A stretch of DNA of 64,000 nt from an uncultured Clostridia bacterium (GCA_937966555.1 CALCLY010000031.1:1869-65868); one strand, 5' to 3'; positions 6,634 through 56,839 are shown, numbered from the stretch's first letter. Notes: generated by a model not told the origin, from the sequence alone. Numbers and translations: made by a program.

Positions 6634-6826
6634 GAAAAGTCCTCCTTACAGCAGTTTTTATTAAACCTGTTATATACGCGTTTGTATCAGTTTTTTACAA
6701 TGTTTTCATACCGATTTGCTGCAATTATTATACCACAGTTCTTCCTTCATTGTCAATATAAAAGGGCAGTTTGAAAAAGGACTAACTATTAATTTTAATT
6801 TTTTGAGAGAAATTTATAAAATAGCA

Positions 6827-6884: not shown

Positions 6885-6922
6885 TTAACAAAAATCTTAT
6901 GACGCATAAGGGGGCATTTTAT

Positions 6923-7294
6923 ATGTCAAATGCAAAACACACAATTACCGATTCGGAATACAGTATTATGAAAATTTTGTGGAACTCGGAAAAGAAAATG
7001 ACGGTATCCGATGTTGTGGACGCCCTTGACGGAAACGACTGGACGCCGTCCACTGTTTCAACATTTTTGCAGAGATTATTAAAAAAGAATGTTGTATCCT
7101 GCGAAAAAAAGGGGAACACAAATTTATATTATCCGATTTTGAAACAAAATGATTATGATATGTCTGAGACCGAGAGCTTTTTATCAAAAATATATAAAGG
7201 CTCAGTTAAAAATCTTGTTGCGGCACTCTATGAGAACAAAAAGCTTTCCAAAGAGGATATGTCGGAGCTTAAAAGTATGTTTGATTTGGAGTGA
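6923..7294 (+). CDS. BlaI/MecI/CopY-family transcriptional repressor (123 aa)
   Basis: Winged-helix penicillinase-repressor N-terminus (ITDSEYSIMKILWNSEKKMTVSDVVDAL...WTPSTVSTFLQRLLKKNVV). RBS AAGGGGG before ATG 6923. Confidence 0.85.
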   Translation: MSNAKHTITDSEYSIMKILWNSEKKMTVSDVVDALDGNDWTPSTVSTFLQRLLKKNVVSCEKKGNTNLYYPILKQNDYDMSETESFLSKIYKGSVKNLVAALYENKKLSKEDMSELKSMFDLE

Positions 7295-17134: not shown

Positions 17135-17145
17135 TTACCTCCTTC

Positions 17146-25050: not shown

Positions 25051-25114
25051 TGCAATTCCTCCTTTTGGTTTCATTTTTTTTGCATCCGTTGTGTTGTAAT
25101 TGATTATTTGTTCA

Positions 25115-25144
25115 ATTATATCACAAAAACCACTCCTCGTCAAG
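25115..25144 (-). promoter_or_regulatory. Consensus sigma-A promoter for the giant-protein operon (TTGACG at 25144-25139, 18-nt spacer, TATAAT at 25120-25115)
   Basis: Read on the - strand: TTGACGaggagtggtttttgtgaTATAAT, ~55 nt upstream of the start codon at 25050. Confidence 0.5.
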
Positions 25145-25182
25145 CTGTTCAACAAATTATTTCATATTTTGGAATATATACA

Positions 25183-27890: not shown

Positions 27891-27939
27891 TTAAAACACC
27901 TCTCTTCCCAATGTTTTATTTTTCCCGATTTTTAAATTT

Positions 27940-28239
27940 TTACTTCATAAGTTTTTGTATTGTGGCAGTGAGCTCATCTATTATTTCATCCTTGCCGTCT
28001 CTGATATCTTTCACAACACAGCTTCTTATGTGATTTGCAAGTATTTCGCGGTTAAACGCATTCACGGCAGCCCCTACAGCGGCGGACTGAATTAATATGT
28101 CATTGCAATATGCGTCCCGTTCCACCATCGACTGCAATCCGCGGATTTGTCCTTCTATTCTCTTAAGCCTGTTAAGCAAACTTTTTTTCTGTTCTTCACC
28201 TCTTACGGTATGTCTTTCACAGCAGCACTGTTTTTCCAT
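27940..28239 (-). CDS. csoR: CsoR-family copper-sensing transcriptional repressor (99 aa; ATG 28239 after RBS GGAAGGAGG)
   Basis: LLNRLKRIEGQIRGLQSMVERDAYCNDILIQSAAVGAAVNAFNREILANHIRSCV matches the CsoR/RcnR fold with the conserved Cys/His. The longer ORF-track N-terminus lacks an RBS. Confidence 0.85.
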   Translation of the reverse strand: MEKQCCCERHTVRGEEQKKSLLNRLKRIEGQIRGLQSMVERDAYCNDILIQSAAVGAAVNAFNREILANHIRSCVVKDIRDGKDEIIDELTATIQKLMK

Positions 28240-28257
28240 AATTGCCTCCTTCCTGTT

Positions 28258-28307
28258 ATACCCCCGCAGGGTATTTATATTATATACCCTCTCGGGGTAT
28301 TTGTCAA
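28258..28307 (-). promoter_or_regulatory. cop operon promoter (TTGACA 28307-28302; TATAAT 28284-28279) with two CsoR-type operators ATACCCCCGCAGGGTAT (28258-28274) and ATACCCTCTCGGGGTAT (28284-28300)
   Basis: Two GC-rich pseudo-palindromes of the ATACCC-N5-GGGTAT type: one lies in the -35/-10 spacer, the other just downstream of the -10. This matches the known CsoR operator architecture. Confidence 0.6.
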
Positions 28308-28319
28308 TACCTTTTAGCA

Positions 28320-28357
28320 AAAAAACGGCCGGCAATATTTCGCCGACCGTTTTTCCC
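28320..28357 (-). terminator. Rho-independent terminator after mrp (stem ACGGTCGGC...GCCGGCCGT + U7)
   Basis: - strand: GGGAAAAACGGTCGGCGAAATATTGCCGGCCGTTTTTTTGC, immediately after the mrp stop at 28358. Confidence 0.6.
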
Positions 28358-32909: not shown

Positions 32910-34739
32910 TTATGCTCTTTTTTTGCTTGTTGCAGCTTTTATAACAAAAAGTGTCAAAAGCATTACAACAATACCGATAGGAAGAACAATCAGCCAGTTT
33001 TGTATAAATCCCGCAACAATGTAAATCACAAACGATACCGCAGCAACGGTAAGTGCATATGGCAGCTGCGTCGAAACGTGATTCAAGTGATTGCACTGCG
33101 CACCTGCGGAAGCCATAATTGTTGTGTCCGAAATAGGTGAGCAATGGTCACCGCAGACAGCACCTGCCATGCAGGCAGAAATTGCAATGATGCTGATTTC
33201 TTTATCGATCGAACCGCCGAATACAGCCAAAACAATCGGGATAAGTATTCCGAATGTTCCCCACGATGTTCCGGTTGCAAACGAAAGTCCAACGCCGATA
33301 AGGAATACAATTGCGGGAAGAAGCGGAATAAACGCGCTTGCATCATTTCTTACAAATTCAGCAATAAATATTTTAGCACCGAGACTGTCTGTCATCGTCT
33401 TAAGCGTCCACGCACAAACAAGAATAAGTATTGCCGGAACCATTGCCTTAAAGCCTTCCGGAATCGAATCCATACAGTCCTTAAAATTCATAACACGTCT
33501 TAACATAAAGTAAATTACCGCGAAAATGAGTCCCGCAAACGAACCGATTACAAGTCCTACAGACGCATCGGCGCCGGAAAATGCATTTACAAAGTCATGA
33601 TATGTATCACCTGCTGTAAAGAAACCGCCGGAATACAAAAGACCAAACATGCATGTTATGATGAGTACCGCAACAGGAGCCACCAGATCCCATACGCTTC
33701 CCTTTGTATTTTCGGTGCGTTCCTGAACTTCTTCAACGCGTTTTCTTCCTTCTTCCGAGAAAAGGTCGCCGTCTTTCGCATTGTCTTCATGTTTTTTCAT
33801 CGGACCGTAATCAAACTTCATCAAAGCAATTGCAATCATCATAACAATTGTCAGAAGTGCATAAAAATTATATGGAATTGCTCTTATGAAAAGCTCAAGT
33901 CCGCCTATCTGCTCCTCGGATACAAAACCGGCAACTGCCGCCGCCCATGAAGAAATCGGGGCAATAATACAAACAGGTGCTGCGGTAGCGTCTATAAGAT
34001 AAGAAAGCTTTGAGCGCGAAACGTTAAACTTATCGGTAACGGGACGCATTACAGAGCCTACTGTAAGACAATTGAAGTAATCGTCTACAAATATGAGCAC
34101 ACCGAGAGCTATTGTAGCAAGCTGAGCGCCGACTCTTGATTTAATATGCTCTGAAGCCCATCTTCCGAATGCTGCGGAACCGCCCGATTTATTCATTAAA
34201 GCAACAATGGTGCCGAGAACAACCAGGAAAAACAGAATACCTATATTATATGAATCCGCAACCGATGCAATGAAACCGCCCGAAAAAAGGTGATCAACAG
34301 TGCCCATAAAATTAAAATTGGAATAAAGCAGAGAACCTACTAAAATACCTATAAAAAGCGAGGAATACACTTCTTTTGTAATAAGCGCAAGAGCTATTGC
34401 AATAATCGGAGGCAACAGCGCAAGCCATGTGGCATATGGATGCACTTCATCGCGTTTGGCATCAAGTGCCTTATCTAAATTCTCCGTGAAATTTTCCTCT
34501 TTTACATTTGAGGAATAGTTATCAATAAATGTTGAAGCCGCCGTTTGGTAGTTTTCAATTTCTTCTTCCGACATAGAATCGGGCGTATAAGCCGGGCTGT
34601 CAGCCATAAACTCAACTGCCGCATCATTATCTGTCAAATCAACTTCATCCGCAAATGCCGTAAATGACGTAATCATGCAGATGGTCATCATTGAAATCAG
34701 AATTGCCGCAAGAATTTTTTTCTTCTTTAGTTGATGCAT
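32910..34739 (-). CDS. NhaC-family Na+/H+ antiporter-type transporter with N-terminal signal/extracytoplasmic extension (609 aa); likely a lysine-regulated amino-acid transporter
   Basis: The NhaC core (GSAAFGRWASEHIKSRVGAQLATIALGVLIFVDDYFNCLTVGSVMRPVTD...) spans many TM helices. It is preceded by a lysine riboswitch. Confidence 0.8.
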   Translation of the reverse strand: MHQLKKKKILAAILISMMTICMITSFTAFADEVDLTDNDAAVEFMADSPAYTPDSMSEEEIENYQTAASTFIDNYSSNVKEENFTENLDKALDAKRDEVHPYATWLALLPPIIAIALALITKEVYSSLFIGILVGSLLYSNFNFMGTVDHLFSGGFIASVADSYNIGILFFLVVLGTIVALMNKSGGSAAFGRWASEHIKSRVGAQLATIALGVLIFVDDYFNCLTVGSVMRPVTDKFNVSRSKLSYLIDATAAPVCIIAPISSWAAAVAGFVSEEQIGGLELFIRAIPYNFYALLTIVMMIAIALMKFDYGPMKKHEDNAKDGDLFSEEGRKRVEEVQERTENTKGSVWDLVAPVAVLIITCMFGLLYSGGFFTAGDTYHDFVNAFSGADASVGLVIGSFAGLIFAVIYFMLRRVMNFKDCMDSIPEGFKAMVPAILILVCAWTLKTMTDSLGAKIFIAEFVRNDASAFIPLLPAIVFLIGVGLSFATGTSWGTFGILIPIVLAVFGGSIDKEISIIAISACMAGAVCGDHCSPISDTTIMASAGAQCNHLNHVSTQLPYALTVAAVSFVIYIVAGFIQNWLIVLPIGIVVMLLTLFVIKAATSKKRA

Positions 34740-34799: not shown

Positions 34800-34998
34800 T
34801 GCCACAACCGTTTTAATGCCACATATATCGGTTATGATAGCGCTCCACTTTTTTGTGACAGTACACGGCATATTCTGCCGTATCCCAACCCGCACGGGAC
34901 GGAAACCCCGCGAAGATTTCGGCGGTCAAGCCTAACGCCGTACAACATTTCCGTGTTATATGTACGGCGGTCTTCTTAAACCGCGCCTCTATCAAACA
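34800..34998 (-). ncRNA. Lysine riboswitch (L-box) in the 5' leader of the NhaC-family transporter gene
   Basis: - strand leader: UGAUAGAGGCGCGG...GUACGGCGUUAGGCUUGACCGCCGAAAUCUUCGCGGGGUUUCC...GGGUUGGGAUACGGCAGAAUAUGCCGUGUACUGUCACAAAAAAGUGGAGCGCUAUCA. It has the L-box hallmarks: AGAGGCGC start, GCCGAA, GGGG, UGUCA, and closing GGAGCGCUAUC pairing back to the 5' end. L-box control of NhaC-type genes is established in Firmicutes. Confidence 0.7.
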
Positions 34999-35003
34999 AA
35001 TAT

Positions 35004-35106: not shown

Positions 35107-35781
35107 TTACACTATATAAAATAAAATGCAAAACATATGCAATAAGCTGCCCAAAACAACAAATATATGAAATATCGAATGCATAAATCTCTTTTTTTTC
35201 TGCAATATATAAAAAACAGCACCTATACTGTATGCAATTCCTCCCGTTATAAGAAAAATTATTCCTCCATGCGCTATTGATGCGGTTGTTGCGCTCCACG
35301 CAAACACAATGCACCACCCCATTGCCAAATAACATACTACCGAAATTTTTTCAAAAGACTTTAAGTCTATTGAATTAAGTGTAATACCTATTGCGGCAGC
35401 AGCCCAGACAACGCCAAAAACAGTCCAGCCTACAGCCGGAGAATACTCTCTGAGTGCTGCAAGGCAAATCGGCGTATATGTGCCTGCTATAAGCAAAAAT
35501 ATGGAGCAGTGATCTATAACCTGAAAAACTTTTTTGGCTTTCAAGCCCGGTTTCAGACCGTGGTAAATGCTTGACATTGTGTAAAGTACAATCATTGATG
35601 CTCCATATATTGCACTTCCCACAACAGCATATGTATTCTTATGTATTGCCGCAAAAATCACACAAAGACAAAGAGCAACAAGTCCGACACCTCCGCCCAC
35701 AATGTGAGTTGTCATATTAAAAATCTCTTCCCCTTTTGTATAATCAGGCAGCTTTCTTTCAGAAAGTTTTTCTCTTTTCAT
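35107..35781 (-). CDS. Hemolysin-III / PAQR-family membrane protein
   Basis: 7-TM protein with the HxxxH-type motifs of the YqfA/hemolysin III family (TTHIVGGGVGL..., SSIYHGLKP..., IDHCSIFLLIAGTYTP). Confidence 0.85.
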   Translation of the reverse strand: MKREKLSERKLPDYTKGEEIFNMTTHIVGGGVGLVALCLCVIFAAIHKNTYAVVGSAIYGASMIVLYTMSSIYHGLKPGLKAKKVFQVIDHCSIFLLIAGTYTPICLAALREYSPAVGWTVFGVVWAAAAIGITLNSIDLKSFEKISVVCYLAMGWCIVFAWSATTASIAHGGIIFLITGGIAYSIGAVFYILQKKKRFMHSIFHIFVVLGSLLHMFCILFYIV

Positions 35782-38127: not shown

Positions 38128-38274
38128 TATAAACCCAAAATTAAAGGTTCTCTGCCCGCAGACAAAGAACCTCTTAAAATCTTCAGAAGTATCCCTCGGC
38201 AGGATTTATTCTTGTACCTGCTGTCTGCGGAACGAGAGTATTATATCATAATATAAATAGTTTGTCAAGTAAAA
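38128..38274 (-). promoter_or_regulatory. rplJ-rplL promoter (TTGACA-N17-TATAAT on the - strand near 38262-38234) and structured L10-leader-type 5' UTR
   Basis: - strand: cTTGACAaactatttatattatgaTATAAT, followed by ~110 nt containing a long stem (GUUCUUUGUCUGCGGGCAGAGAACC). Position and structure fit the autoregulatory L10 leader of Firmicutes; not verified against a covariance model. Confidence 0.45.
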
Positions 38275-40665: not shown

Positions 40666-41457
40666 TTATTTCTTTATATAGAGCATACCAACAAGCTTAT
40701 TAACCGTCCGGCACGGGAGCACTTTAAAAAGAAAGTCGAAAAATTTATATTTTAAACCGGGTGTGTAAAGCGGCTTAACTTTTTTCTTTTCCGCAATCTT
40801 TTTTATAAATGCGGCTATATCTTCCGGAGCCTCCCCGTTTTTCTCGTCATGTTCCATTACGGCAACGGACTTTTGAATTGTTCCTCCGTACAAGCTCTCT
40901 CCGTCATCGTTTTTTATTCTTGCGGCGGTAAAACCCGTTTTAACGTCCCCGGGAGTTACCGCGCATACACTCACGCCGAATCTTGCCGCCTCATTTGCAA
41001 GGCAAAGCGTAAGTGAGTTGACAGCCGATTTTGACGCCGAATAAAACCCCTGATACGGAATTGAAAAACGCGCCGCCTCGGAGCTTACGTTGATAATTCT
41101 GCCGTGGGTATTTCTAAGCAGCGGCAGTGCATATTTCGCAGTCAGAAATGTTCCGTAAAAGTTAACGTCAAAAATGGATTTCGCATCCGACAGGTTTGTA
41201 AACTCAATGGCGCCCGATATTCCGTAACCCGCGCAATTTACAAGCAAATCAAGTTTCCCCTCTTTGAGCTTTATTTCTTCAAAAGCCGTTTTAACCGAAA
41301 TTTCGTCCGATACATCCGTTTTTATATTGCAAACTCCTTCGGCACATGATGACCTGCGGCTTAAATTATAAACAGTAAATTCACGGCTTAAAAGTTTTGC
41401 CAGGGCACTCCCTATTCCGCCCGAAGCGCCCGTTATTGCTGCTGTTTTCTTATTCAT
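40666..41457 (-). CDS. SDR-family oxidoreductase (candidate 3-keto-amine / 3-ketosphinganine-type reductase), translationally coupled to the upstream alpha-oxoamine synthase
   Basis: TAAITGASGGIGSALAKLL Rossmann motif; 263 aa. Start overlaps the stop of the upstream gene by 8 nt. Confidence 0.75.
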   Translation of the reverse strand: MNKKTAAITGASGGIGSALAKLLSREFTVYNLSRRSSCAEGVCNIKTDVSDEISVKTAFEEIKLKEGKLDLLVNCAGYGISGAIEFTNLSDAKSIFDVNFYGTFLTAKYALPLLRNTHGRIINVSSEAARFSIPYQGFYSASKSAVNSLTLCLANEAARFGVSVCAVTPGDVKTGFTAARIKNDDGESLYGGTIQKSVAVMEHDEKNGEAPEDIAAFIKKIAEKKKVKPLYTPGLKYKFFDFLFKVLPCRTVNKLVGMLYIKK

Positions 41458-42625
41458 ACTCCGAAAGCACTTCCTTAATAATGTCCATCGCCTCGTCCAA
41501 AAGCTGCTCGGTATGAGTTGCCATAAGACTTGTCCTTATCAGGCATTCCGAAGGAGCAGTAGCCGGCGGCAGCACCGGATTTACATAAACACCTTTTTCA
41601 AATAATTTTTTTGAGATTTCAAGTGTTTTAATATCATTATATGTATAAATCGGAATTATAGGTGCTGCGGAATCTTTTATTTTTATGCCGCGCGCCTTAA
41701 GCCCGTTTCTCATATAATCCGCCAGCGAAAGAAGACGCGAAACGCGTTCCGGTTCATGCTTTATAATCTCAAGGGATTTTCTTGCCGCCGCACAGTTTCC
41801 GGGAGGAATGGACGCAGAAAAAATAAATGATCTTGCCGAATGTCTGAGGTATTCTATTATTCTTTCGGATGCCACGGCATATCCGCCAAGGCTTGCAAGA
41901 GATTTGCTGAATGTTCCCATAATAATGTCAACTTCATCAGTAAGTCCGAAATGACTTGCCGTTCCTCTTCCGCCCTTGCCTATAACGCCGAGTCCGTGCG
42001 CATCGTCAACCATGACTCCGGCATCAAATTCGCGCGCTATTTCAACAATATCGGGCAGCTTGCATATATCGCCGCTCATGCTGAAAACACCGTCCGTCAC
42101 AATAAGCTTACCTGCTTTTTCGGGTATCTCTTTAAGCTTTTTTCTCAAATCGTCCATGTCGCTGTGCTTATATCTCACGGCGTTTGCATAGCTTAATTTA
42201 CAGCCGTCATATATGCTTGCATGGTTTTCCTTATCGTTTATAATATAATCATGTCTTGCCGTTATACCGCTTATGATACCGAGGTTTGACTGATATCCCG
42301 TTGAAAACGTCATTGCGGATTCCTTGCCGAGAAAATCAGCAAGTTCGTGTTCAAGCTTTATGTGCATATCAAGCGTGCCGTTTAAAAACCTTGAACCGCT
42401 GCATCCGGTTCCGTATTGTTTAACGGCATTTTCCGCCGCTTCCATGACCTCCGGGTGTACCGTAAGACCGAGATAGTTATTTGAGCCTAGCATTATTTTG
42501 CGTCCGCCCTCCATCATAACCTCAACATCCTGTCTCGATTCAAGCTCGTGAAAATAAGGATATATTCCCTTCTCTTTGTATTCGCGCGCCACGCTTGCCG
42601 CATCGCATTTATCAAACAAAGACAT
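41450..42625 (-). CDS. Serine-palmitoyltransferase-like alpha-oxoamine synthase (PLP-dependent, 391 aa; ATG 42625 after RBS AAGGAGT)
   Basis: By recalled sequence, closest to bacterial SPT rather than Kbl/BioF: GSRFLNGTLDMHIKLEHELADFLGKESAMTFSTGYQSNLGIISGI, NHASIYDGC, PLP-lysine motif MGTFSKSLASLGGY, YVNPVLPPATAPSECLIRTSL. Confidence 0.75.
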   Translation of the reverse strand: MSLFDKCDAASVAREYKEKGIYPYFHELESRQDVEVMMEGGRKIMLGSNNYLGLTVHPEVMEAAENAVKQYGTGCSGSRFLNGTLDMHIKLEHELADFLGKESAMTFSTGYQSNLGIISGITARHDYIINDKENHASIYDGCKLSYANAVRYKHSDMDDLRKKLKEIPEKAGKLIVTDGVFSMSGDICKLPDIVEIAREFDAGVMVDDAHGLGVIGKGGRGTASHFGLTDEVDIIMGTFSKSLASLGGYAVASERIIEYLRHSARSFIFSASIPPGNCAAARKSLEIIKHEPERVSRLLSLADYMRNGLKARGIKIKDSAAPIIPIYTYNDIKTLEISKKLFEKGVYVNPVLPPATAPSECLIRTSLMATHTEQLLDEAMDIIKEVLSEYE

Positions 42626-42789
42626 TGCTTTTACTCCTTTAAATGAAAATATGTATAAATTATACACTTAATTTTAAAAAAATGCAAGCATTATTTAATT
42701 TATCCTTTTTATAAATTCCAAATCCGTTGATTTAATATGAATTTTGATATATAATAAATAAATAGAACTTTTGAAAGGACTGTGATTTT

Positions 42790-43269
42790 ATGAATGAGCT
42801 CCTTGAGCTTTTGGAAAAAAACTCTTCTTACTCGACAGAGCAGCTTGCCGTGATGCTTAATATGACAAAAGACGATATTGAAAGCGCAATAAAAAAATAC
42901 AAGGAAGACGGGATAATTATTGCCGAAAAAGCTCTTATCGACTGGGAAAAAGCCGGTTCGCAGAAGGTCACCGCCTTCATTGAGCTTAAAATTACGCCTC
43001 AATACGGCCTGGGCTTTGACAAGATTGCCGAGCGGCTGTATGAATATGACGAAATAAAAACAATCTGGCTTATGTCGGGCGCCTTTGACCTTGCTCTTAT
43101 AATAGAAGGGAAAACCATGAAGGAGGTTGCGCTTTTTGTTGCCGAAACGCTCGCTCCCATGGAACAGGTTTTAAGCACCTCCACAAGCTTTGTTCTTAAG
43201 ACCTACAAAGACTGCGGATTTGTTTTCAAACCGCAGAAGAAAGACGAAAGAGGTTTTGTTTCGCTATGA
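42790..43269 (+). CDS. Lrp/AsnC-family transcriptional regulator
   Basis: N-terminal HTH (ELLELLEKNSSYSTEQLAVMLNMTKDDIESAIKKYKEDGII) and C-terminal RAM domain. Divergent from the SPT-like operon. Confidence 0.85.
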   Translation: MNELLELLEKNSSYSTEQLAVMLNMTKDDIESAIKKYKEDGIIIAEKALIDWEKAGSQKVTAFIELKITPQYGLGFDKIAERLYEYDEIKTIWLMSGAFDLALIIEGKTMKEVALFVAETLAPMEQVLSTSTSFVLKTYKDCGFVFKPQKKDERGFVSL

Positions 43270-44435
43270 TAGACACTAAAAAGCTTATAAACGAAAAAGT
43301 GGCTGCCATTCCCCCGTCAGGGATACGCAGATTCTTTGATATAGCCGCAGAAATGAAAGACGCAATATCTCTCGGCGTGGGAGAGCCGGACTTTGTAACG
43401 CCATGGCATATAAGAGACGCCGGAATACGCGCTTTGCGCGACGGTCACACATACTATACATCAAACAGCGGTCTCTCTGAATTGAGGCAGGAAATTGCCG
43501 CTTATCTTGAGCGCCGCTTTTCACTAAGCTACCGACCCGACGGCGAAATTCTCGTAACTGTCGGCGGAAGCGAGGCAATCGACCTGCTTTTGCGAACCGT
43601 TATATCAGAAGGTGACGAAGTTTTAATACCGGAGCCGTCTTTTGTTTGTTATTCTCCGTGCACGCGCCTTGCCGGCGGAACTCCCGTTCCGATAGTAACG
43701 CGCGAAGAAGATGAATTTCGCTTAACCGCAAAAGCTCTGAAGGACGCTATAACTCCGCGCACAAAACTTCTTATACTGCCTTTCCCGAACAATCCCACAG
43801 GAGCAATAATGCCTCGAAAAAGCCTTGAAGAAATAGCCGATGTGTTAAAAGATACGAACATCCTTGTTATGAGTGATGAAATTTATGCCGAGCTTACTTA
43901 CGAAGGAAGACATATTTCCATCGCCAAAATCCCCGGCATGCAGGAGCGCACCGTACTTGTAAGCGGCTTTTCAAAAGCATATGCCATGACCGGATGGAGA
44001 CTCGGCTATGCCTGCGGCCCCGCCCCGCTGGTTGCCGCAATGACAAAAATTCACCAGTTTGGCATAATGAGCGCTCCGACAACGAGTCAGTATGCGGCAA
44101 TAGAAGCCATGCGGCGCGGAGATAATGATATCGAATCCATGAAACGCGAATATAATTACCGCAGACGTGTAATAGTTGACGGATTCCGCTCCATGGGGCT
44201 TTCGTGCTTTGAACCGCGCGGCGCATTTTATGTTTTTCCTTCCATCAAACGGACCGGTATGAAATCCCTTGAATTTGCGGAAAAACTTCTCATGAGCGAA
44301 AAAATTGCCGTTGTACCGGGCGACGCTTTCGGTGAAAGCGGAGAAGGCTTCATAAGATGCTCTTATGCATATTCAATTGACAGTATAAATGAGGCTCTGA
44401 GCAGAATAGAACACTTTGTGAAAAAAAACTTATAA
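43266..44435 (+). CDS. Class I/II PLP-dependent aminotransferase (aspartate/aromatic aminotransferase-like)
   Basis: SFSKAYAMTGWRLGY (PLP-Lys), ...NNPTGA...; 389 aa. Start overlaps the Lrp stop by 4 nt. Confidence 0.85.
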   Translation: MIDTKKLINEKVAAIPPSGIRRFFDIAAEMKDAISLGVGEPDFVTPWHIRDAGIRALRDGHTYYTSNSGLSELRQEIAAYLERRFSLSYRPDGEILVTVGGSEAIDLLLRTVISEGDEVLIPEPSFVCYSPCTRLAGGTPVPIVTREEDEFRLTAKALKDAITPRTKLLILPFPNNPTGAIMPRKSLEEIADVLKDTNILVMSDEIYAELTYEGRHISIAKIPGMQERTVLVSGFSKAYAMTGWRLGYACGPAPLVAAMTKIHQFGIMSAPTTSQYAAIEAMRRGDNDIESMKREYNYRRRVIVDGFRSMGLSCFEPRGAFYVFPSIKRTGMKSLEFAEKLLMSEKIAVVPGDAFGESGEGFIRCSYAYSIDSINEALSRIEHFVKKNL

Positions 44436-49523: not shown

Positions 49524-50279
49524 TTGAAAGACAGACGTGAAAAAATCAACAAGTACATAATCTCAAAGGGCTTTGTAACACTTACGGAACTTTCCTCTCT
49601 GTTCCCGGAGGTTTCGACAATGACTTTAAGGCGCGATCTCGAATATCTCGAAGACGCGGGAGAAATCATAAGAACACGCGGCGGAGCAAAAAGCATAATG
49701 CACCTTTCAATGAAAAAGGAAGAAGCGTATAACAGACGCGAATTCGTAAATCCTTCGCTTAAAGCGGAGATAGGCAAAAAAGTTGCCGGACTTATTGAAG
49801 ACAACAGCTGCGTTTTTTTTGACGCCGGAAGCACAGTAATGCAGGTTGCAAAAGAAATGGGGCAAAAACCTCTTTTTGCAATTACAAGCGGTCCGAATAT
49901 CGCAATGGAACTTACTAAAAACAAGAACTGCGACATAAGCGTTGTATGCGGCCATCTTAATCCCGACAACATTTCGCTTTCGGGTCTTCATTCGGTTGAG
50001 TTTTTAAAAGGTCTTAACATAGGTACTGCGATTATAGCCGCATCGGGTTTTACAAAAAACTGCGGTTTTACATGCGGCAGCTATGACGAATGCGAATTAA
50101 AGCGCGCCGCTGTGCAAATGGCAAGCCGCGTTATAATAGTGATGGACAGCACAAAGCTCGGTAAAAGCCATCCTTTTACTTTTGCAGAACCGTCGGATGC
50201 AGACTATTTTGTAACCGATGACGGATTTGATAAAAAAACCGCCGAAAATCTTACACAGATCGGCGTTAAAGTTTTGTGA
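49524..50279 (+). CDS. DeoR/GlpR-family transcriptional regulator
   Basis: N-terminal HTH (KINKYIISKGFVTLTELSSLFPEVSTMTLRRDLEYLEDAGEIIRTRGGA) + DeoR C-terminal sugar-phosphate-binding domain. Confidence 0.85.
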   Translation: MKDRREKINKYIISKGFVTLTELSSLFPEVSTMTLRRDLEYLEDAGEIIRTRGGAKSIMHLSMKKEEAYNRREFVNPSLKAEIGKKVAGLIEDNSCVFFDAGSTVMQVAKEMGQKPLFAITSGPNIAMELTKNKNCDISVVCGHLNPDNISLSGLHSVEFLKGLNIGTAIIAASGFTKNCGFTCGSYDECELKRAAVQMASRVIIVMDSTKLGKSHPFTFAEPSDADYFVTDDGFDKKTAENLTQIGVKVL

Positions 50280-50316
50280 AAAACAAATAATAATATATTT
50301 TAGGAGTTGAACTATT

Positions 50317-51576
50317 ATGAAAACAAAAGCGCTGAGGCTCTACGGAAAAAACGATTTGCGTCTTGAAGAATTTGAGCTTCCGGAAATCCGCGACGATGAA
50401 ATACTCGCCAAAGTTGTTTCGGACTCTATCTGCATGTCGTCTTACAAAGCGACCATACAGGGCGCAGACCACAAGCGCGTTCCGAACGACGTAAGCGAAA
50501 ATCCGATAATCATCGGTCACGAATTCTGCGGAGAAATAATTAAGACAGGCAGCAAATGGGCAGACGAATGGAAACCGGGACAGCGTTTCTCAATCCAGCC
50601 CGCAATAAACTATAAAGGCAGTCTTGCCGCTCCGGGATATTCATATAAATACATAGGCGGTCAGGCTACATACGTAATAATCCCTCACGAATTCATGGAA
50701 ATGAGTTGCCTCCTTCACTATGCGGGCGATGCATTTTTCTACGGTTCTCTTGCTGAGCCGATGAGCTGTATCGTTGGCGGCTACCACGCTCAGTATCATA
50801 CGGAAAACGGCTGCTATGTTCACAAGATGGGCATTGTTGAAGGCGGAAACATGGCAATTCTGGCCGGCGCAGGCCCCATGGGTATGGGAGCGATAGACTA
50901 TGCAATACACGGTCCTCGCAAGCCGAAAATGCTCGTTGTTACGGACATAGATGATGCAAGACTTAACCGTGCCGCAAGCATTCTGACACCCGAAGATGCT
51001 GCCAAAAACGGAGTTGAGCTTATTTATCTCAACACTTCCGACAAGACTGCGGCAGATATGCGCGCCATGACAGACGGAAAAGGTTTTGACGATGTTTATG
51101 TTTATGCGCCCGTTCGCCCCGTTGTTGAAATGGGTAACGATATTTTGGGCAAAGACGGCTGTCTGAACTTCTTTGCAGGTCCGACAAACCCTGATTTTAA
51201 AGCAGAATTTAACTTTTATAATGTTCACTATGCATCAACTCATATTGTAGGAACATCGGGCGGCAACACGGACGATATGAAAGAAGCTTTGTCGCTTATG
51301 GAAAAAGGTCTTGTAAACCCCGCCGCTATGATCACTCACATAGGCGGACTTGACGCAGCCGGCGAAGCCACGCAGCATCTCCCCGAAATCAAAGGCGGCA
51401 AAAAGCTTATATACACACATATAAGCCTTCCCCTTACGGCAATTTCGGATTTTGAAGAACTCGGTAAAACAAATGAGCTTTTCAAAAATCTTGCAGAAAT
51501 AGTTAAAAGATATAACGGTCTCTGGAACACGGAAGCCGAAAAGTATTTACTTTCGCACTTGGCGGAAACTGAGTAA
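50317..51576 (+). CDS. Zn-dependent medium-chain alcohol/polyol dehydrogenase (butanediol/sorbitol DH-like) with ~60-aa C-terminal extension
   Basis: GHEFCGEI catalytic-zinc motif. Structural-zinc Cys absent/modified. NAD Rossmann GAGPMGMGAIDYA. 419 aa vs a typical ~350. Confidence 0.8.
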   Translation: MKTKALRLYGKNDLRLEEFELPEIRDDEILAKVVSDSICMSSYKATIQGADHKRVPNDVSENPIIIGHEFCGEIIKTGSKWADEWKPGQRFSIQPAINYKGSLAAPGYSYKYIGGQATYVIIPHEFMEMSCLLHYAGDAFFYGSLAEPMSCIVGGYHAQYHTENGCYVHKMGIVEGGNMAILAGAGPMGMGAIDYAIHGPRKPKMLVVTDIDDARLNRAASILTPEDAAKNGVELIYLNTSDKTAADMRAMTDGKGFDDVYVYAPVRPVVEMGNDILGKDGCLNFFAGPTNPDFKAEFNFYNVHYASTHIVGTSGGNTDDMKEALSLMEKGLVNPAAMITHIGGLDAAGEATQHLPEIKGGKKLIYTHISLPLTAISDFEELGKTNELFKNLAEIVKRYNGLWNTEAEKYLLSHLAETE

Positions 51577-51647
51577 TCCCAATACAAAAACAATTCATCA
51601 TTAGCTCGTGATGATATTAAAAATTTGAGCAGGAAAGGATTTTTTTA

Positions 51648-52952
51648 ATGGCAACACCAATTATTATGCCAAAGCAGGGACAATCGGTTGAAAGCTGTAT
51701 TATCTCTAAATGGCACAAACAGAAAGGCGATAAAGTCAATATCGGCGATATGCTGTTTTCTTACGAAACCGACAAAGCCGCTTTCGATGAAGAAGCAAGC
51801 GTTGAAGGCACTCTTCTTGACGTTTTCTTTGAAGAAGGCGACGATGTGCCCTGTCTCACAAACGTATGTGTTATAGGCAATGACGGGGAAAGCACTGCCG
51901 AATTCAAGCCTGCGTCCGAAGACGATGACGATGCTCCGGCAGTTGCTGAAAGCACGCCCGAAGCAGAATCCGAAAAACCGGCTGTAACGGTTAATACAAG
52001 CGGAGACACAAAAGCCTCCCCCAGAGCACGTGCATTGGCAGACGCTAAAGGCATTGACATTTCCGCCGTTGCACCGACAGGTCCTTACGGAAGAATTATA
52101 GAAAGAGATGTTCGCGCATATGCCGAAAGCGGTGTCGGCGCTGTTATGGGAAGCGACATTGCCGGCGTTTCCGGCACGGGAATCGGCGGAAAAGTCCGTA
52201 TAGAAGATCTCGGCAAGGCTGCTCCCGTTGCCGCTGCGGCTCCGGTTGCTGCGGAAGCTGAAATTACGGAAGTTCCGATTTCTAACATCCGCAAAGTTAT
52301 TGCAAAGAGCATGCATGCTTCTCTCTCCGAAATGGCACAGCTTACCTTGAACACTTCGTTTGACGCAACAGAAATCATGGCATTTCGTGCAAAGGTTAAA
52401 GCGGCAGGCGAAAAACTCGGTCTTGCAAATATCACATTGAACGACATTATCCTTTATGTTGTTTCAAGAGTGCTTTTAAACCACAAAGACTTAAATGCGC
52501 ACTTCACAGGTACTTCAATGAAATATTTCAGCAAAGTAAACCTCGGTGTTGCCGTTGATACTCCGCGCGGTCTTATGGTTCCCACAATTTTTGCAGCTTC
52601 CGATAAATCACTCAACGAAATTGCAAAAGAAAGCAAAGAACTTGCATCGGCTGCCCAGAGCGGCACCATCAGCCCCGACCTTTTAACCGGCGGTTCATTC
52701 ACCGTTACAAACTTAGGCTCAATGGGCATAGAGTCGTTTACACCTGTAATAAATCCGCCTCAGACGGGAATTTTGGGTGTTGACGGCATAACAACAGGCA
52801 TTAAGGAAGTAAACGGAGAAATAAAGACATACAAGAAAATGGGTCTTTCTCTCACATTCGATCACAGAGCGGTTGACGGCGCTCCCGCCGCAAAAATGCT
52901 TCGTGATGTTGCATTCGGGCTCGAAAACTTCAGCCTGATGCTTTCAAAATAA
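51648..52952 (+). CDS. Dihydrolipoamide acyltransferase (E2) of a 2-oxoacid/acetoin dehydrogenase complex
   Basis: Lipoyl domain (ETDKAAFDEEASVEGTLL), Ala/Pro-rich linkers, E3-binding domain, catalytic domain with DHRAVDGA. Confidence 0.9.
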   Translation: MATPIIMPKQGQSVESCIISKWHKQKGDKVNIGDMLFSYETDKAAFDEEASVEGTLLDVFFEEGDDVPCLTNVCVIGNDGESTAEFKPASEDDDDAPAVAESTPEAESEKPAVTVNTSGDTKASPRARALADAKGIDISAVAPTGPYGRIIERDVRAYAESGVGAVMGSDIAGVSGTGIGGKVRIEDLGKAAPVAAAAPVAAEAEITEVPISNIRKVIAKSMHASLSEMAQLTLNTSFDATEIMAFRAKVKAAGEKLGLANITLNDIILYVVSRVLLNHKDLNAHFTGTSMKYFSKVNLGVAVDTPRGLMVPTIFAASDKSLNEIAKESKELASAAQSGTISPDLLTGGSFTVTNLGSMGIESFTPVINPPQTGILGVDGITTGIKEVNGEIKTYKKMGLSLTFDHRAVDGAPAAKMLRDVAFGLENFSLMLSK

Positions 52953-52972
52953 TAAAAGCGAGGTAATTTGTC

Positions 52973-54337
52973 ATGAAATATGATTTAATAGTTCTCGGCG
53001 GAGGTCCTGCCGGATACTTGGCGGGAGAACGTGCCGCACATGCGGGACTTAAAACCCTTGTTATAGAAGAACGTGCTTTCGGCGGTGTTTGCTTAAACGA
53101 AGGCTGCGTTCCCTCAAAGTCCCTTCTTTACTGCGCCAAGGCATATGACTACACAAAACATGCAAAAGATTACGGCATTACCGTTTCGGAATCTTCAATA
53201 GATCAAAAAGCTGTTGTGGAAAGAAAAAACAAGGTTGTAAAAACTCTTGTTTCGGGAATTGAAATGCAACTTAAAGCATGCAAGTGCGATACACTTAAGG
53301 CACGCGGTAAAATAACCGGCAAAAGCTCCGAAGGATATACGGTTGATGCCGACGGAAAAACATACACATGCGCAAAGCTTCTCATTGCAACGGGAAGCGA
53401 AGCAATTGTTCCCCCCATTGACGGTGTTGCGGACGGAGTGAAGAGCGGTCATGTCCTCACAAACCGTGAAATCCTGGATCTTACCGAAATCCCGAAAACG
53501 CTTGTTGTTGTTGGCGGCGGTGTAATAGGTCTTGAAATGGCTTCGTATTTTAATTCCGTGGGAACGGAAGTTACGGTTGTTGAAATGCTTGATCATATTG
53601 CAGGTCCCACAGACAGCGACATAAGCTCGATACTTCAGAAAAACTACGAAAAGAAAGGCATAAAATTCAATCTCGGCGCAAAAGTCACACGCGTTACACC
53701 TGATGCGGTTGAATTTGAAAAAGGCGGCAAAACCGAGTCTGTTTCCGCCGAAAAAGTTCTCCTTTCCATCGGAAGACGCGCAAGAACGCGTGACATCGGT
53801 CTTGAAACAATCGGCGTTTTGCTTGACAGAGGCAAGATTGTAACAGACGAATACATGAAAACAAATATTCCCGGCGTATATGCGACAGGCGATGTAAACG
53901 GCAAAATCATGCTTGCTCACACGGCGTACAGAGAAACCGAAGTTGCAATAAACAATATGCTCGGCAAACGCGATATTATGCGTTATGACGCAATTCCTTC
54001 GGTTATATACACAAATCCCGAAGTAGGCTCCGTAGGTCTTACGGAAAAAGCCGCAAAAGATGCGGGATACGATATAGCGGTTGTTAAAACTCCCATGGCT
54101 TACAGCGGCAGATACATTGCCGAAGGCGGCGGAGACGGAATCTGCAAACTTGTTGTAGACAAGAAATATAACAGACTTTTGGGTGTTCATGTAATAGGTA
54201 ACTATGCTTCGGAATTCATTGTTGCAGCTTCAATTCTCGTTGAAACTCAGATGAGAATCGATGACATAAAAGAACTTGTATTCCCCCACCCCACAGTTTG
54301 TGAAATCATAAAAGAAGCAATATTTCAGCTTAAATAG
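52973..54337 (+). CDS. lpdA: Dihydrolipoyl dehydrogenase (E3)
   Basis: FAD motif VLGGGPAGY, redox disulfide GGVCLNEGCVPSK, NAD motif, C-terminal His-Pro-x-x-x-x-Glu (HPHPTVCE). Confidence 0.95.
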   Translation: MKYDLIVLGGGPAGYLAGERAAHAGLKTLVIEERAFGGVCLNEGCVPSKSLLYCAKAYDYTKHAKDYGITVSESSIDQKAVVERKNKVVKTLVSGIEMQLKACKCDTLKARGKITGKSSEGYTVDADGKTYTCAKLLIATGSEAIVPPIDGVADGVKSGHVLTNREILDLTEIPKTLVVVGGGVIGLEMASYFNSVGTEVTVVEMLDHIAGPTDSDISSILQKNYEKKGIKFNLGAKVTRVTPDAVEFEKGGKTESVSAEKVLLSIGRRARTRDIGLETIGVLLDRGKIVTDEYMKTNIPGVYATGDVNGKIMLAHTAYRETEVAINNMLGKRDIMRYDAIPSVIYTNPEVGSVGLTEKAAKDAGYDIAVVKTPMAYSGRYIAEGGGDGICKLVVDKKYNRLLGVHVIGNYASEFIVAASILVETQMRIDDIKELVFPHPTVCEIIKEAIFQLK

Positions 54338-54364
54338 CATTTGATTAGAAAGGATTGATTAAAA

Positions 54365-56839
54365 GTGACAAAGTCATTATTCGTTGACCCTAATGAAGTC
54401 AGAAAACCCGGCAAAATCAAATTTACGGATATTCCCGTAAACCAGTACAAAAAAACAATTAAAGAGGAAAGCAGCAATTATTCAAATGCGGATTTCATGC
54501 GTATCTACCGCGATATGCGCATAATCCGTGAATTTGAAACAATGCTTTACAACATCAAAACAGCAGGAAATTATAACGAGATTGAATATAACAATCCCGG
54601 TCCCGCCCACCTTTCCATGGGCCAGGAGGCTTCAGCTGTAGGCCAGGCATATCTGCTTGACAAAGATGATAATATTTTCGGTTCACACAGAAGCCACGGC
54701 GAAATACTTGCAAAAGGTCTTTCCGCAATTGAAAAACTTTCCGATGATGAACTTATTTCAATTATGGAAAGCTTCTTGGGCGGCGCAACACTTCGCGTTG
54801 TTGAAGGCAAACAGAAAGACAAATCAAATGTTAAAGAACTCGCTATGGACTTCCTTCTCTACGGAGCGCTTGCAGAAGTATTCGCAAGAGAAACCGGATT
54901 TAACAAAGGTTTCGGCGGCTCAATGCACGCTTTCTTTACTCCCTTCGGAATTTATCCGAACAACGCTATAGTAGGCGGCTCGGCAACAATTGCAATGGGT
55001 GCTGCACTCTATAAGAGAGTAAACAAAAAAAGCGGCATAGTAATTTCCAATGTCGGAGACGCTTCCATGGGATGCGGTCCTGTTTGGGAAGCTCTTAATA
55101 TGTCCGCAATGGATCAGTATAAAACTCTTTGGGAAAAGGGTTATGACGCAGGTCTGCCGATTATCTTCAACTTCTTCAACAACTTCTACGGAATGGGCGG
55201 TCAGACATTCGGCGAGACAATGGCTTATCACTTCCTCGCACGTGTCGGTGCAGGTGTTAACCCCGAACAGATGCATGCCGAAAGAATCGACGGATACAAT
55301 CCTCTTGCAGTTATTGACGCTATGCGCCGCAAGATTGATATTATCAAAGAAAACAAGGGTCCCGTTCTTCTCGATACGGTTACATATCGTATGGCAGGTC
55401 ACTCACCGTCCGATGCTGACAGCTACAGAACAAAAGAAGAGAAAGACGCATGGGCGGAGCATGATGTACTTGTAAATTACAAAGCTAAACTTATCGACGC
55501 AGGCGTTGCAAAAGAAGAAGACTTTGCCGCAGCCGATGCTGATATCATTGAAAGAATGATGAAAGTTTGCCGTCTTGCAATAGATGACGAAGTTTCACCG
55601 CGCATCGACTTAAACCGCGATCCCGCCGCTATCGAAAGACTCATGTTCTCTAACGAGACTGTAGAAAAATTCGATGACAGGGAGCCCGAAGTTTTAATGC
55701 CCCTGGAAGAGAATCCCAGAGTTCAGCAGATTGCTAAACGTTCGCGCTGGGGATTTGACGCCAAAGGCAAACCTGTTTCAAAGAACAAAGTGTTCCAGCT
55801 GCGTGACGGTCTTTTTGAAGCTATTATAGACAGATTCTATAAAGATCCCACATTGGTTGCATACGGAGAGGACAACCGTGACTGGGGCGGCGCATATGCT
55901 GTTTACCGCGGACTTACGGAGGCTCTTCCCTACCACCGCTTCTTCAATGCTCCGATTTCCGAGGCAGCAATTGTCGGCAGCGCCGTAGGTTATGCAATGA
56001 GCGGCGGACGCGTGCTTGCCGAAATCATGTACTGCGACTTTATAGGCCGTGCCGGCGACGAAATATTCAACCAGCTTGCAAAATGGCAGTCAATGAGTGC
56101 AGGTATACTCAAAATGCCTGTGGTTATCCGTGTTTCCGTTGGAAGCAAATACGGCGCTCAGCACTCTCAGGACTGGACTTCGATTTGCGCTCATATACCC
56201 GGACTTAAAGTTGCGTTCCCCGCAACTCCTTATGACGCTAAGGGTCTTATGGCTTCGGCTCTTTCCGGAACCGACCCCGTTATATTCTTTGAAAGTCAGA
56301 GAATATATGACGTCGGCGAGCAGTTCCACGAGGGCGGCGTTCCCGAAGGTTATTATGAAATCCCCTTCGGCGAACCGGATGTCAAACGCACAGGTTCGGA
56401 TGTAACAATCCTCACAATCGGTGCAACTCTTTACAGAGCACTTAAAGCTGCCGATGTGCTGAAAGAAAAATACGGCATCAGCGCCGAAGTTATAGACGCT
56501 CGCTCAATAGTTCCCTTTAACTATGAAAAGGTATTGGAAAGCGTTAAAAAGACAGGCAGAATCGTTCTTGCAAGTGATGCTTGCGAACGCGGCTCTCACC
56601 TCAAAGACATTGCTCAGAACATAAGCGAAATGGCGTTTGATTATCTTGACGCTCCTCCCGTTGTTGTAGGTGCGCGCAACTGGATAACACCCGCCCATGA
56701 GCTTGAAAACTTCTTCTTCCCGCAGCCCGAATGGATTATTGACGCTATAAACGAAAAAATTCTTCCTCTTCCGGGTCATGTTGCAACAGAAAACTTCACT
56801 TCTGTTGAACAGGAAAGAAGAAACAAACTAGGTGTTTGA
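54365..56839 (+). CDS. Fused E1 alpha-beta component (TPP-dependent 2-oxoacid/acetoin dehydrogenase E1, 824 aa)
   Basis: The N-terminal half is an E1-alpha dehydrogenase with TPP motif GDASMGCG...N. A ~50-aa linker follows, then an E1-beta transketolase-like pyrimidine-binding and C-terminal domain ([18 protein letters not shown]...). Confidence 0.85.

Follow-up and report, generated by a model that had tools for sequence, protein, structure and literature searches.

An alpha-oxoamine synthase of the serine palmitoyltransferase type overlapping an SDR gene in Clostridia: a candidate cassette for sphingoid base formation

Results

Gene organization of the locus

In the 64-kb stretch of DNA analysed (the window), a gene for a PLP-dependent alpha-oxoamine synthase (AOS) resembling serine palmitoyltransferase (SPT) is followed by a gene for a classical SDR; on the opposite strand, genes for an Lrp/AsnC regulator and an aminotransferase form a pair of their own with a 4-nt overlap (Table 1). 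The four ORFs of the initial annotation were confirmed at the coordinates it had given, and its family assignments were borne out by Pfam (PF00155, 204 bits, for the synthase) and NCBIfam; the motifs it had quoted (GSRFLNGT, FSTGYQSNLGIIS, NHASIYDGC, GTFSKS, YVNPVLPPATAPSECLIRTS) were all present in the synthase translation, and the stop of the synthase gene indeed shares 8 nt with the start of the SDR gene. The host, an uncultured gut bacterium, is Clostridia-type, the named relatives of its Ffh being Clostridia and Clostridiaceae MAGs. SLH domains are present on giant proteins encoded in the window.

The 391-aa synthase was favoured over a start at GTG 42667 because a ribosome binding site precedes the ATG; the 405-aa alternative is unlikely, as its GTG falls within the -10 region of the putative promoter. 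A consensus promoter scan gave no match at the latter site because its -35 element fits the consensus at 3 of 6 positions only.

Table 1. Genes and predicted signals at the synthase–SDR locus.
Feature	Position	Strand	Remarks
SPT-like PLP-dependent alpha-oxoamine synthase (AOS), 391 aa	41450-42625	minus	ATG start; Pfam Aminotran_1_2; candidate serine palmitoyltransferase
Classical SDR, 263 aa	40666-41457	minus	Pfam adh_short; candidate 3-ketodihydrosphingosine reductase
Lrp/AsnC regulator, 159 aa	42790-43269	plus	ORF
Aminotransferase, 389 aa	43266-44435	plus	ORF
Synthase stop/SDR start overlap, 8 nt, ATGAATAA	41450-41457	minus	translational coupling
RBS AAGGAG, 8 nt 5' of synthase ATG 42625	42634-42639	minus	supports the 391-aa start
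Putative operon promoter	42659-42687	minus	predicted; read directly from sequence
-35 element TTGCAT	42687-42682	minus	17-nt spacer to extended -10
Extended -10 element TGTATAAT	42666-42659	minus	part of putative operon promoter

Affiliation of the synthase

In phmmer searches of PDB sequences, the best match of the synthase was the SPT of Sphingobacterium multivorum (447 bits; 51.3% identity to the crystallised enzyme, ungapped, over 384 aa). Lower scores were obtained for the Sphingomonas SPTs (280–289 bits; 39% identity), Kbl and BioF/Kbl enzymes (239–262 bits; E. coli Kbl, 33.8%), SulA (244 bits), CapB (217 bits) and E. coli BioF (approximately 201 bits; 30.2%), in agreement with the original proposal that the enzyme is nearer to SPT than to Kbl or BioF. 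The top NCBIfam model was the Bacteroidota-type SPT (NF047600, SerpalmtaseCFB) with 563.9 bits, a value below the curated equivalog cutoff of 640 and about 150 bits ahead of the runner-up NCBIfam models, beta-proteobacterial SPT (415 bits), gly_Cac_T_rel (412.7 bits), BioF (395.7 bits) and Kbl (390 bits). On NF047600, the controls S. multivorum SPT and E. coli Kbl reached 729.6 and 348 bits, respectively, and five other Clostridial homologs 521–561 bits.

A role in biotin synthesis as BioF (8-amino-7-oxononanoate synthase) would accord with the label that JGI gives to some of the homologs and with the 395.7 bits on the BioF model (TIGR00858); that score, however, falls short of the model's cutoff of 426.45, identity to the E. 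coli enzyme is low (see above), none of bioA, bioB, bioD and bioW recurs near the synthase in 80 related loci, and biotin synthesis has no role for the conserved SDR partner. We therefore regard this assignment as extremely improbable.

In a neighbor-joining tree of 213 sequences, the Clostridial synthases formed a monophyletic clade (bootstrap 100%) that was set apart, together with the S. multivorum-type SPT, from Sphingomonas SPT, Kbl and BioF (90%); the deeper node joining all SPTs against Kbl had a bootstrap of 66%. The phylogeny proposed as a check in the initial annotation thus placed the synthase with the Bacteroidota-type SPT, outside Kbl and BioF. This weakly resolved SPT/Kbl split and the still high scores on the Kbl models (NF005394, 390 bits; TIGR01822, 313 bits) leave a slender chance for a pathway of threonine/glycine metabolism, in which the synthase would act as Kbl and the SDR as threonine or allo-threonine dehydrogenase; E. 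coli kbl-tdh also pairs an AOS with a neighbouring dehydrogenase. Against it, the cutoffs of both models (460 and 493, respectively) were not reached, their scores lay approximately 170 bits under that of the SPT model, and identity to E. coli Kbl was well below that to SPT.

Active site residues

Hallmarks of AOS enzymes are a Schiff-base lysine, a PLP-stacking histidine, an aspartate to the pyridine nitrogen, a histidine to O3' and a C-terminal arginine for the substrate carboxylate. In the synthase, K241, H135, D207 and H210 align with K244, H138, D210 and H213 of S. multivorum SPT, and R364, the C-terminal arginine, with its LIR motif. According to the residue roles described in PMC10196870 and PMC9304779, all PLP- and L-serine-contacting residues of the S. 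multivorum enzyme (PMC10196870) are kept: N49, G77, S78, F80, H135, S182, D207, A209, H210, T238, S240, K241, F269, A271 and R364 all have the residue found at the corresponding active-site position of SPT, and the SPT-type states Asn52, Gly80-Ser81, Ser243, Ala274, Tyr27 and Phe83 are represented by N49, G77-S78, S240, A271, Y24 and F80. Among 81 Clostridial sequences, the SPT-matching residues were nearly all invariant, with one conservative exception each at Tyr24, Phe80 and Ala209. In contrast, Kbl has Val, Gly, Asn and Glu/Glu at the positions of Ser78, Ser240, Ala271 and Tyr24/Phe25; Ser240 (in GTFSKS) corresponds to Gly also in BioF, and Ala271, present in 81 of 81 Clostridial sequences, to Lys in SulA and Thr in BioF (PMC9304779). 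Taken together, the HMM and PDB scores, the active-site residues and the tree support an SPT-like, not a Kbl- or BioF-like, identity of the synthase.

The lysine in question (Lys281, SulA numbering) tells SulA from Spt and is diagnostic for cysteate acyltransferases (PMC9304779). Sulfonolipid (capnine) synthesis, an alternative raised at the outset in which the synthase would act as cysteate acyltransferase (SulA/CapB), with the SDR as 3-ketocapnine reductase, is disfavoured because Ala271 replaces this residue. The same two-step logic is established for Bacteroidota (PMC9304779, PMC11211663), and cfat and kcr homologs were found by permissive searches in 12–14% of Firmicutes genomes (PMC11211663); nevertheless, the SulA and CapB scores amount to about half of the SPT score and no cysteate synthase gene is linked to the synthase, which leaves this pathway with next to no likelihood.

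The acyl-wall residues Tyr24, Phe25, Phe80, Leu81 and Phe269 are retained. Near the acyl tunnel, several residues of the N-terminal hydrophobic core deviate from S. multivorum SPT (F13A, I15V, V16A, L19Y, F338L). The S. multivorum enzyme senses the serine hydroxyl mostly via water and backbone contacts, and it also takes Ala, Gly, Thr and homoserine (PMC10196870); the conserved residues are therefore also compatible with any of these as substrate.

The SDR partner and its conservation across Clostridia

The synthase loci from 80 other Clostridia species genomes served for comparison. An SDR gene adjoins the synthase gene in 60 of the 80 loci (directly downstream in 55), and no SDR is nearby in 18 loci that have room downstream. 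Pairwise distances of synthase and SDR were correlated (r = 0.71, Mantel p <= 0.0005, n = 56); this co-divergence, the frequent adjacency and the 8-nt overlap link the SDR functionally to the SPT-like gene.

The top NCBIfam model of the SDR was the Bacteroides KdsR (NF049977) with 189.1 bits, below the curated equivalog cutoff of 400 and only 16 bits ahead of the second, generic model (PRK06179, 172.9 bits). Its TGASGGIG (TGxxGxxG) and YSASK (YxxxK) motifs are generic to SDRs; Ser33-Arg34 following beta-strand 2 are conserved among 56 partners, the arginine at this place suggesting NADPH use. With KdsR as best model and a conserved, co-diverging synthase as neighbour, the overlapping SDR has held up as a natural candidate for the 3-keto reduction. 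It is less suited to threonine catabolism: known threonine dehydrogenases belong either to the Zn-dependent MDR enzymes or to the extended SDRs (approximately 320 aa), not to the classical SDRs of 263 aa, and no tdh-like gene recurred beside the synthase in the 80 loci. In sum, an enzyme pair of the Kbl type is highly unlikely.

The initial annotation had counted the Lrp regulator and the aminotransferase as members of the module, a view that did not survive the comparison: in the 80 related loci, no counterpart of either lies within 10 kb of the synthase, the sole aminotransferase there being unrelated (27% identical). The ribosomal genes next to the window synthase are never neighbours in these loci either. 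The Lrp regulator, aminotransferase and ribosomal-protein genes lie outside the synthase–SDR unit. No linked ceramide-synthase-like GNAT, ACP or acyl-CoA/ACP synthetase gene was present in the window or the 80 loci, and tblastn with the FemAB-like/GNAT domain that is fused to the AOS in related proteins gave no match in the 64-kb window and the 80 loci except for a weak one (L065).

Discussion

Proposed function of the gene pair

Gene structure, translational coupling, SPT-type residues, clade placement, conserved adjacency and co-divergence are the observations on which the following proposal is built; the amino acid, acyl donor, chain length and product fate are what we infer. Judged by sequence, the pair is most likely an spt-kdsR cassette for a sphinganine-type long-chain base, a known enzyme pair represented here by a new lineage. 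That the overlapping genes would constitute a self-contained operon for a long-chain 2-amino-1,3-diol (sphinganine-type sphingoid base) is given a probability of roughly 0.6.

By homology, the PLP enzyme would bind L-serine as external aldimine, and condensation with a long-chain fatty acyl thioester would yield a 2-amino-3-ketone of the 3-keto-dihydrosphingosine type and CO2. The acyl donor may be acyl-CoA or, plausibly for a Firmicute, acyl-ACP; to our knowledge, long-chain acyl-CoA is not typical of Firmicute metabolism. The co-translated SDR would subsequently turn the 3-keto group into an alcohol, probably with NADPH, as homology and gene coupling suggest. The sphingoid base may remain free or undergo N-acylation by an unlinked enzyme.

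The same chemistry could also be directed to other substrates, in which case the pair would make a different 2-amino-3-hydroxy compound, perhaps a signal or antimicrobial instead of a membrane sphingoid base. Examples would be a long-chain base of the 1-deoxy or homoserine type, derived from Ala, Gly, Thr or homoserine, and a short- or medium-chain amino-alcohol built on butyryl- or hexanoyl-CoA, both of which are plentiful in Clostridia. The largely water-mediated side-chain recognition and the broad amino acid acceptance of S. multivorum SPT (PMC10196870), the deviating core of the acyl tunnel, the position of the clade outside the curated SPT equivalog boundary and the absence of a linked ceramide synthase in the window and the 80 loci would fit such a product. 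However, the serine-contacting positions are identical to those of true SPT and almost all invariant in the 81 sequences, the acyl wall is retained, and SPTs are the nearest characterised enzymes flanking the clade on both sides in the tree; we consider other substrates a rather unlikely, if serious, option.

Implications for gut sphingolipids

Gut bacterial sphingolipids affect the immunity and lipid metabolism of the host. The literature searched attributes them to Bacteroidota (e.g. PMC10865984, PMC10191378), and metagenomic studies quantify the Bacteroides spt gene only; no report of SPT or sphingolipids in Clostridia was found there, in line with the earlier statement that sphingolipid synthesis is not established for this group. 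With the predicted pair recurring in many Clostridia, gut Firmicutes may have gone unnoticed as producers of sphingoid lipids. If carriers of the cassette make sphingoid bases, microbiome gene-to-metabolite maps are incomplete, annotation of the Clostridial clade, e.g. as 'BioF' or 'class I/II aminotransferase', is wrong or uninformative, and a single-membrane cell must house sphingoid lipids, which raises questions on acyl donor, topology and function.

A more far-reaching and doubtful idea is that many Clostridia of gut, rumen and digesters (Oscillospiraceae, Christensenellales, some Lachnospiraceae) make sphingoid bases de novo via the cassette and convert them into membrane or secreted sphingolipids by means of a ceramide synthase that has no kinship with the one known from bacteria. 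Sphingolipid production would then be a common trait of monoderm Firmicutes, and Bacteroidota would not be the sole source of bacterial sphingolipids reaching the host.

Comparison with known systems

The E. coli kbl-tdh pair resembles the sphingoid base cassette proposed here in that an AOS-family enzyme lies beside a dehydrogenase sharing one 2-amino-3-keto/2-amino-3-hydroxy pair; it differs in being catabolic, with a C4 substrate and a Zn-dependent MDR dehydrogenase, and the window synthase is 34% identical to Kbl with different specificity positions. SulA/CapB and 3-ketocapnine reductase (PMC9304779, PMC11211663) share the order of AOS and SDR keto-reduction leading to a long-chain 2-amino-3-hydroxy lipid base, whereas the window synthase has Ala for the diagnostic Lys and a much lower similarity to these enzymes.

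The Caulobacter-type ceramide pathway (Spt, ACP, ACP-synthetase, bCerS, CerR; cited in PMC11087976 and PMC10191378) likewise begins with a soluble Spt homolog and has clustered genes, the 3-keto base being N-acylated before reduction. In contrast, the Clostridial pair has no linked gene for a GNAT-type ceramide synthase, an ACP or a synthetase in the window and the 80 loci, the candidate reductase resembles KdsR more than CerR, and the synthase reached only 337 bits with the alpha-proteobacterial SPT model.

The 3-ketosphinganine reductase BT_0972 of Bacteroides thetaiotaomicron (KdsR, NF049977; PMC9278070), for which NADPH use is reported, is likewise a classical SDR (approximately 265 aa) in which a glycine-rich motif and YxxxK are present, and represents the best-scoring curated model of the window SDR, although the latter, at 189 bits where the cutoff is 400, is barely over generic SDR models. 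The Bacteroidota SPTs (S. multivorum, PDB 3A2B/8GUH; Bacteroides BT_0870; NF047600) are closest to the synthase: both are soluble, single-domain AOS of roughly 390 aa, with 51% ungapped identity, identical PLP, serine and acyl-wall residues, and a common group in the tree. Unlike these, the Clostridial synthases form a separate monophyletic clade, so far seen in Clostridia-type Bacillota only, score 521–564 bits where the family model has its cutoff at 640, and belong to a monoderm host without known sphingolipids. Moreover, the Bacteroides reductase gene is distant from spt (BT_0972 and BT_0870), whereas in the window the two genes overlap and the Clostridial synthase gene is translationally coupled to its candidate reductase.

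Gene layout and signals at the locus

The initial annotation had described four open reading frames at this locus, a PLP-dependent synthase followed by a short-chain dehydrogenase/reductase (SDR), divergent from an Lrp/AsnC regulator and an aminotransferase; all four were recovered, and their families agree with Pfam and NCBIfam (see the table of features). Upstream of the synthase gene, TTGCAT, 17 nt, TGTATAAT and, 8 nt ahead of the ATG at 42625, AAGGAG were read from the sequence; since these signals fit and the alternative GTG start at 42667 falls within the −10 element, the start giving the 391-aa protein is taken as the real one. The proposed overlap of the synthase stop with the SDR start is present as ATGAATAA, the usual mark of translational coupling. 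Downstream of the SDR gene, rpmG has a promoter-like site of its own; no terminator was detected between the two, Rfam gave no riboswitch or leader for the synthase-SDR operon, and the G+C content across the region is not unusual.

Features of the window discussed in the text or recorded alongside
Feature	Length (aa)	Position	Strand	Assignment
ORF	447	755-2098	+	no Pfam or NCBIfam match
ORF	326	3843-4823	+	no Pfam or NCBIfam match
BlaI/BlaR1-type repressor-sensor pair		6716-8136	+	
ORF	393	8141-9322	+	no Pfam or NCBIfam match
Two adjoining giant ORFs	2323 + 2669	10163-25155	-	first ends in SLH (S-layer homology) domain; second, weak Ig-like match only
Copper P-type ATPase and CsoR-type repressor		25656-28335	-	
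Na+/H+ antiporter-family gene	609	32910-34739		
Lysine riboswitch		34830-34999	-	Rfam RF00168, 78.8 bits; upstream of antiporter-family gene
PAQR/hemolysin-III family protein	 	35107-35781	-	TrhA, 210 bits
Ribosomal protein L10 leader		38131-38248	-	RF00557, 52.9 bits; upstream of rplJ-rplL
SDR	263	40666-41457	-	Pfam and NCBIfam family
PLP enzyme (synthase)	391	41450-42625	-	Pfam and NCBIfam family
Lrp/AsnC regulator	159	42790-43269	+	Pfam and NCBIfam family
Class I/II aminotransferase	389	43266-44435	+	Pfam and NCBIfam family
DeoR regulator and Zn-dependent alcohol dehydrogenase, then 2-oxoacid dehydrogenase complex	E2 434, E3 454, fused E1 alpha-beta 824	49524-56839	+	

The products of the two giant ORFs are probably cell-surface proteins. 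The PAQR gene lies ~5 kb downstream of the synthase-SDR cassette. The family counts ceramidase-like receptors among its eukaryotic relatives; because it is widespread, the nearness of the gene to the cassette is probably coincidental.

Affiliation and active site of the synthase

Curated models, solved structures and alignment concur with the initial view that the synthase resembles serine palmitoyltransferase (SPT) rather than the other α-oxoamine synthases (AOS) Kbl and BioF. The top NCBIfam model was the Bacteroidota-type SPT NF047600 (563.9 bits; cutoff 640); the remaining scores were 415 bits for the beta-proteobacterial SPT model (cutoff 500), 412.7 for gly_Cac_T_rel (535.4), 395.7 for BioF (426.45), 390 and 313 for the two Kbl models (460 and 493), 337 for the alpha-proteobacterial SPT model (670), 263 for ALAS (338.55) and 224 for the CqsA-type model (428). 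Even the top score is thus below the cutoff of its model, for which the crystallised Sphingobacterium multivorum SPT gave 729.6, five other Clostridial homologs 521-561 and E. coli Kbl 348 bits. Among solved structures, the S. multivorum SPT was retrieved with 447 bits, the Sphingomonas SPTs with 277-289, Kbl and BioF/Kbl enzymes with 235-262, the cysteate acyltransferases SulA and CapB with 244 and 217, and E. coli BioF with ~201 bits. The alignment with S. multivorum SPT covers 384 residues with zero gaps at 51.3% identity (Sphingomonas SPTs 39%, E. coli Kbl 33.8%, E. coli BioF 30.2%).

Residue roles were taken from high-resolution structures of S. multivorum SPT (PMC10196870). The residues contacting PLP and the serine external aldimine are all kept in the synthase (Asn49, Gly77-Ser78, His135, Ser182, Asp207, Ala209, His210, Thr238, Ser240, Lys241, Phe269, Ala271, Arg364), as is the pair Tyr24 and Phe80 in the acyl-pocket wall; some N-terminal hydrophobic-core residues by the acyl tunnel differ in the alignment. 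At three subfamily-discriminating positions the synthase has the SPT state: Ser240 of the GTFSKS motif (Gly in Kbl and BioF), Ser78 (Val in Kbl, Ser in BioF) and Ala271 (Asn in Kbl, Thr in BioF, Lys in SulA). Apart from isolated conservative exchanges, the active-site and acyl-wall positions named here are invariant in the query and its 80 Clostridial homologs (best 80 of at least 600). Given these three states, together with scores under both Kbl cutoffs, it is very improbable that the enzyme is a Kbl. Lysine at the position equivalent to Ala271 has been proposed as a marker of cysteate acyltransferases versus SPT (PMC9304779); a role in sulfonolipid synthesis, for which a gene survey recorded permissive cfat/kcr homolog matches in 12-14% of Firmicutes genomes and left them uninterpreted (PMC11211663), has little probability in view of the alanine of the synthase and the lower structure-search scores of SulA and CapB compared with SPT.

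Distribution and phylogeny

Proteins identical to the synthase are encoded on contigs in over 200 blocks of public metagenome assemblies. A pattern scan with one genome per species gave at least 600 matching stretches, the best 80 of which served as comparison loci: all are from Bacillota MAGs (62-72% identity to the synthase), including Oscillospiraceae, Christensenellales, Lachnospiraceae, Acutalibacteraceae, Ruminococcus, Anaerovoracaceae and one Acholeplasmataceae MAG, with human gut, rumen, rabbit and anaerobic digesters among the origins. The host is itself Clostridia-type, the named relatives of the window's Ffh being Clostridia or Clostridiaceae MAGs.

In a neighbour-joining tree of the query, these best 80 of at least 600 homologs, 127 distant representatives and five references, the Clostridial sequences form a single clade with no other member inside, and the smallest clade adding S. 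multivorum SPT leaves out the Sphingomonas SPTs, Kbl and BioF. The placement that the initial annotation had left to a phylogeny therefore falls with S. multivorum SPT, outside Kbl and BioF. Bootstrapping of a 60-taxon subsample supported Clostridial monophyly with 100% and the node shared with the S. multivorum type with 90%; all SPTs were united against Kbl in only 66%, so that the deep SPT/Kbl branching is not settled. The closest non-Clostridial representatives are metagenomic proteins and a Nitrospina-type cluster, all of which match the SPT model best, below its cutoff. Database names for the synthase clade are generic or 'BioF'.

The SDR and its pairing with the synthase

The top curated model of the SDR is the Bacteroides 3-ketodihydrosphingosine reductase KdsR (189.1 bits; cutoff 400), with a small lead over generic NCBIfam SDR models (172.9 and 164 bits), and no close solved structure was found. 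Taken alone, this model match carries little weight; gene context across genomes gives stronger evidence. Among the best 80 of at least 600 loci, an SDR homolog lies directly downstream of the synthase on the same strand in 55, directly upstream in three and divergently adjacent in two; 18 have none nearby, and in two the contig ends too early. Only unrelated genes (e.g. EamA, DAP dehydrogenase, M20 peptidase, SPFH protein) occupied the SDR-less loci of this best-80 set in place of a partner. The SDR partners vary little in length (259-273 aa), share common catalytic motifs and conserve Ser-Arg after beta-strand 2. In classical SDRs this Ser-Arg usually accompanies NADP(H), the cofactor predicted here from sequence. 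Pairwise distances of synthases and SDR partners are correlated (r = 0.71, Mantel p <= 0.0005, n = 56), and both genes have therefore long travelled together. AOS-SDR fusions were absent from 150 distant representatives.

Genes outside the two-gene unit

A larger module with the Lrp regulator and the aminotransferase, as initially suggested, is ruled out by the non-conserved adjacency in the best 80 of at least 600 loci: no homolog of either occurs within 10 kb of the synthase, with the sole exception of one 27%-identical aminotransferase. The two genes overlap by 4 nt (aminotransferase: NCBIfam PRK07682, 572 bits, cutoff 620) and seem to be a regulator-enzyme pair of their own, presumably resembling the Bacillus alaR-alaT arrangement. 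The genes rpmG-secE-nusG are likewise not conserved beside the synthase in the best 80 of at least 600 loci. In this set, the only other recurrent neighbour is a MarR-type regulator (140-170 aa; 12 loci) with faint similarity (17-25 bits) to the fatty-acid regulator FabT. Its gene is directly upstream on the same strand in loci L017, L021, L024, L026, L028, L030, L031, L038, L047, L049 and L076, suggesting a three-gene operon in some Clostridia; in L040 the gene sits at another position, on the opposite strand.

Genes for ceramide synthase, ACP, acyl-CoA/ACP synthetase, biotin synthesis and threonine dehydrogenase (tdh) were looked for near the synthase, and none of them recurs in the best 80 of at least 600 loci. 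Despite the name given to some members of the clade, a BioF function is highly unlikely, considering this lack of recurrent bio genes and the BioF score below cutoff. Seven distant relatives of the synthase (P0200, P0210, P0216, P0218, P0249, P0281, P0337) carry a homologous N-terminal domain of ~390 aa of FemAB-like/Acetyltransf_6 (GNAT) type ahead of an SPT-like AOS part 42-50% identical to the query, and may be acyltransferase-synthase fusions; apart from one weak match in L065, nothing similar to this domain was found in the window or the best 80 of at least 600 loci.

Proposed pathway and comparison with known systems

The best-supported reading of the two genes is an spt-kdsR-type cassette, with a probability of roughly 0.6 that the product is a sphinganine-type base. 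The PLP enzyme would join serine to a long-chain acyl thioester in a condensation giving a 3-keto base, which the coupled SDR would reduce to a sphinganine-type 2-amino-1,3-diol. The gene structure, the SPT-type active-site residues, the placement of the clade and the conserved, co-diverging pairing of the two genes are observed; we infer the amino acid, acyl donor, chain length and later fate of the base. To our knowledge, long-chain acyl-CoA is rarely made by Firmicutes; for this reason, and because SulA uses acyl-ACP (PMC9304779), acyl-ACP is a plausible donor. That the pair performs the same chemistry on other substrates is a less probable, still appreciable alternative. As both proteins score below the curated equivalog cutoffs, the spt-kdsR-type cassette is filed as a new lineage related to SPT/KdsR, not as established members.

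Neither SPT nor sphingolipids were described from Clostridia or Firmicutes in the full-text literature searched, in which both reviews and primary studies ascribe gut sphingolipids to Bacteroidota (PMC10865984, PMC10191378). BT_0972, the reductase of Bacteroides, turns the SPT product into sphinganine with NADPH (PMC9278070); the genes of SPT and BT_0972 are not adjacent there, whereas those of the synthase and SDR in the window overlap. What is new is the lineage, the coupling of the two genes in one layout and their presence in a monoderm host; the kind of enzymology is already known.
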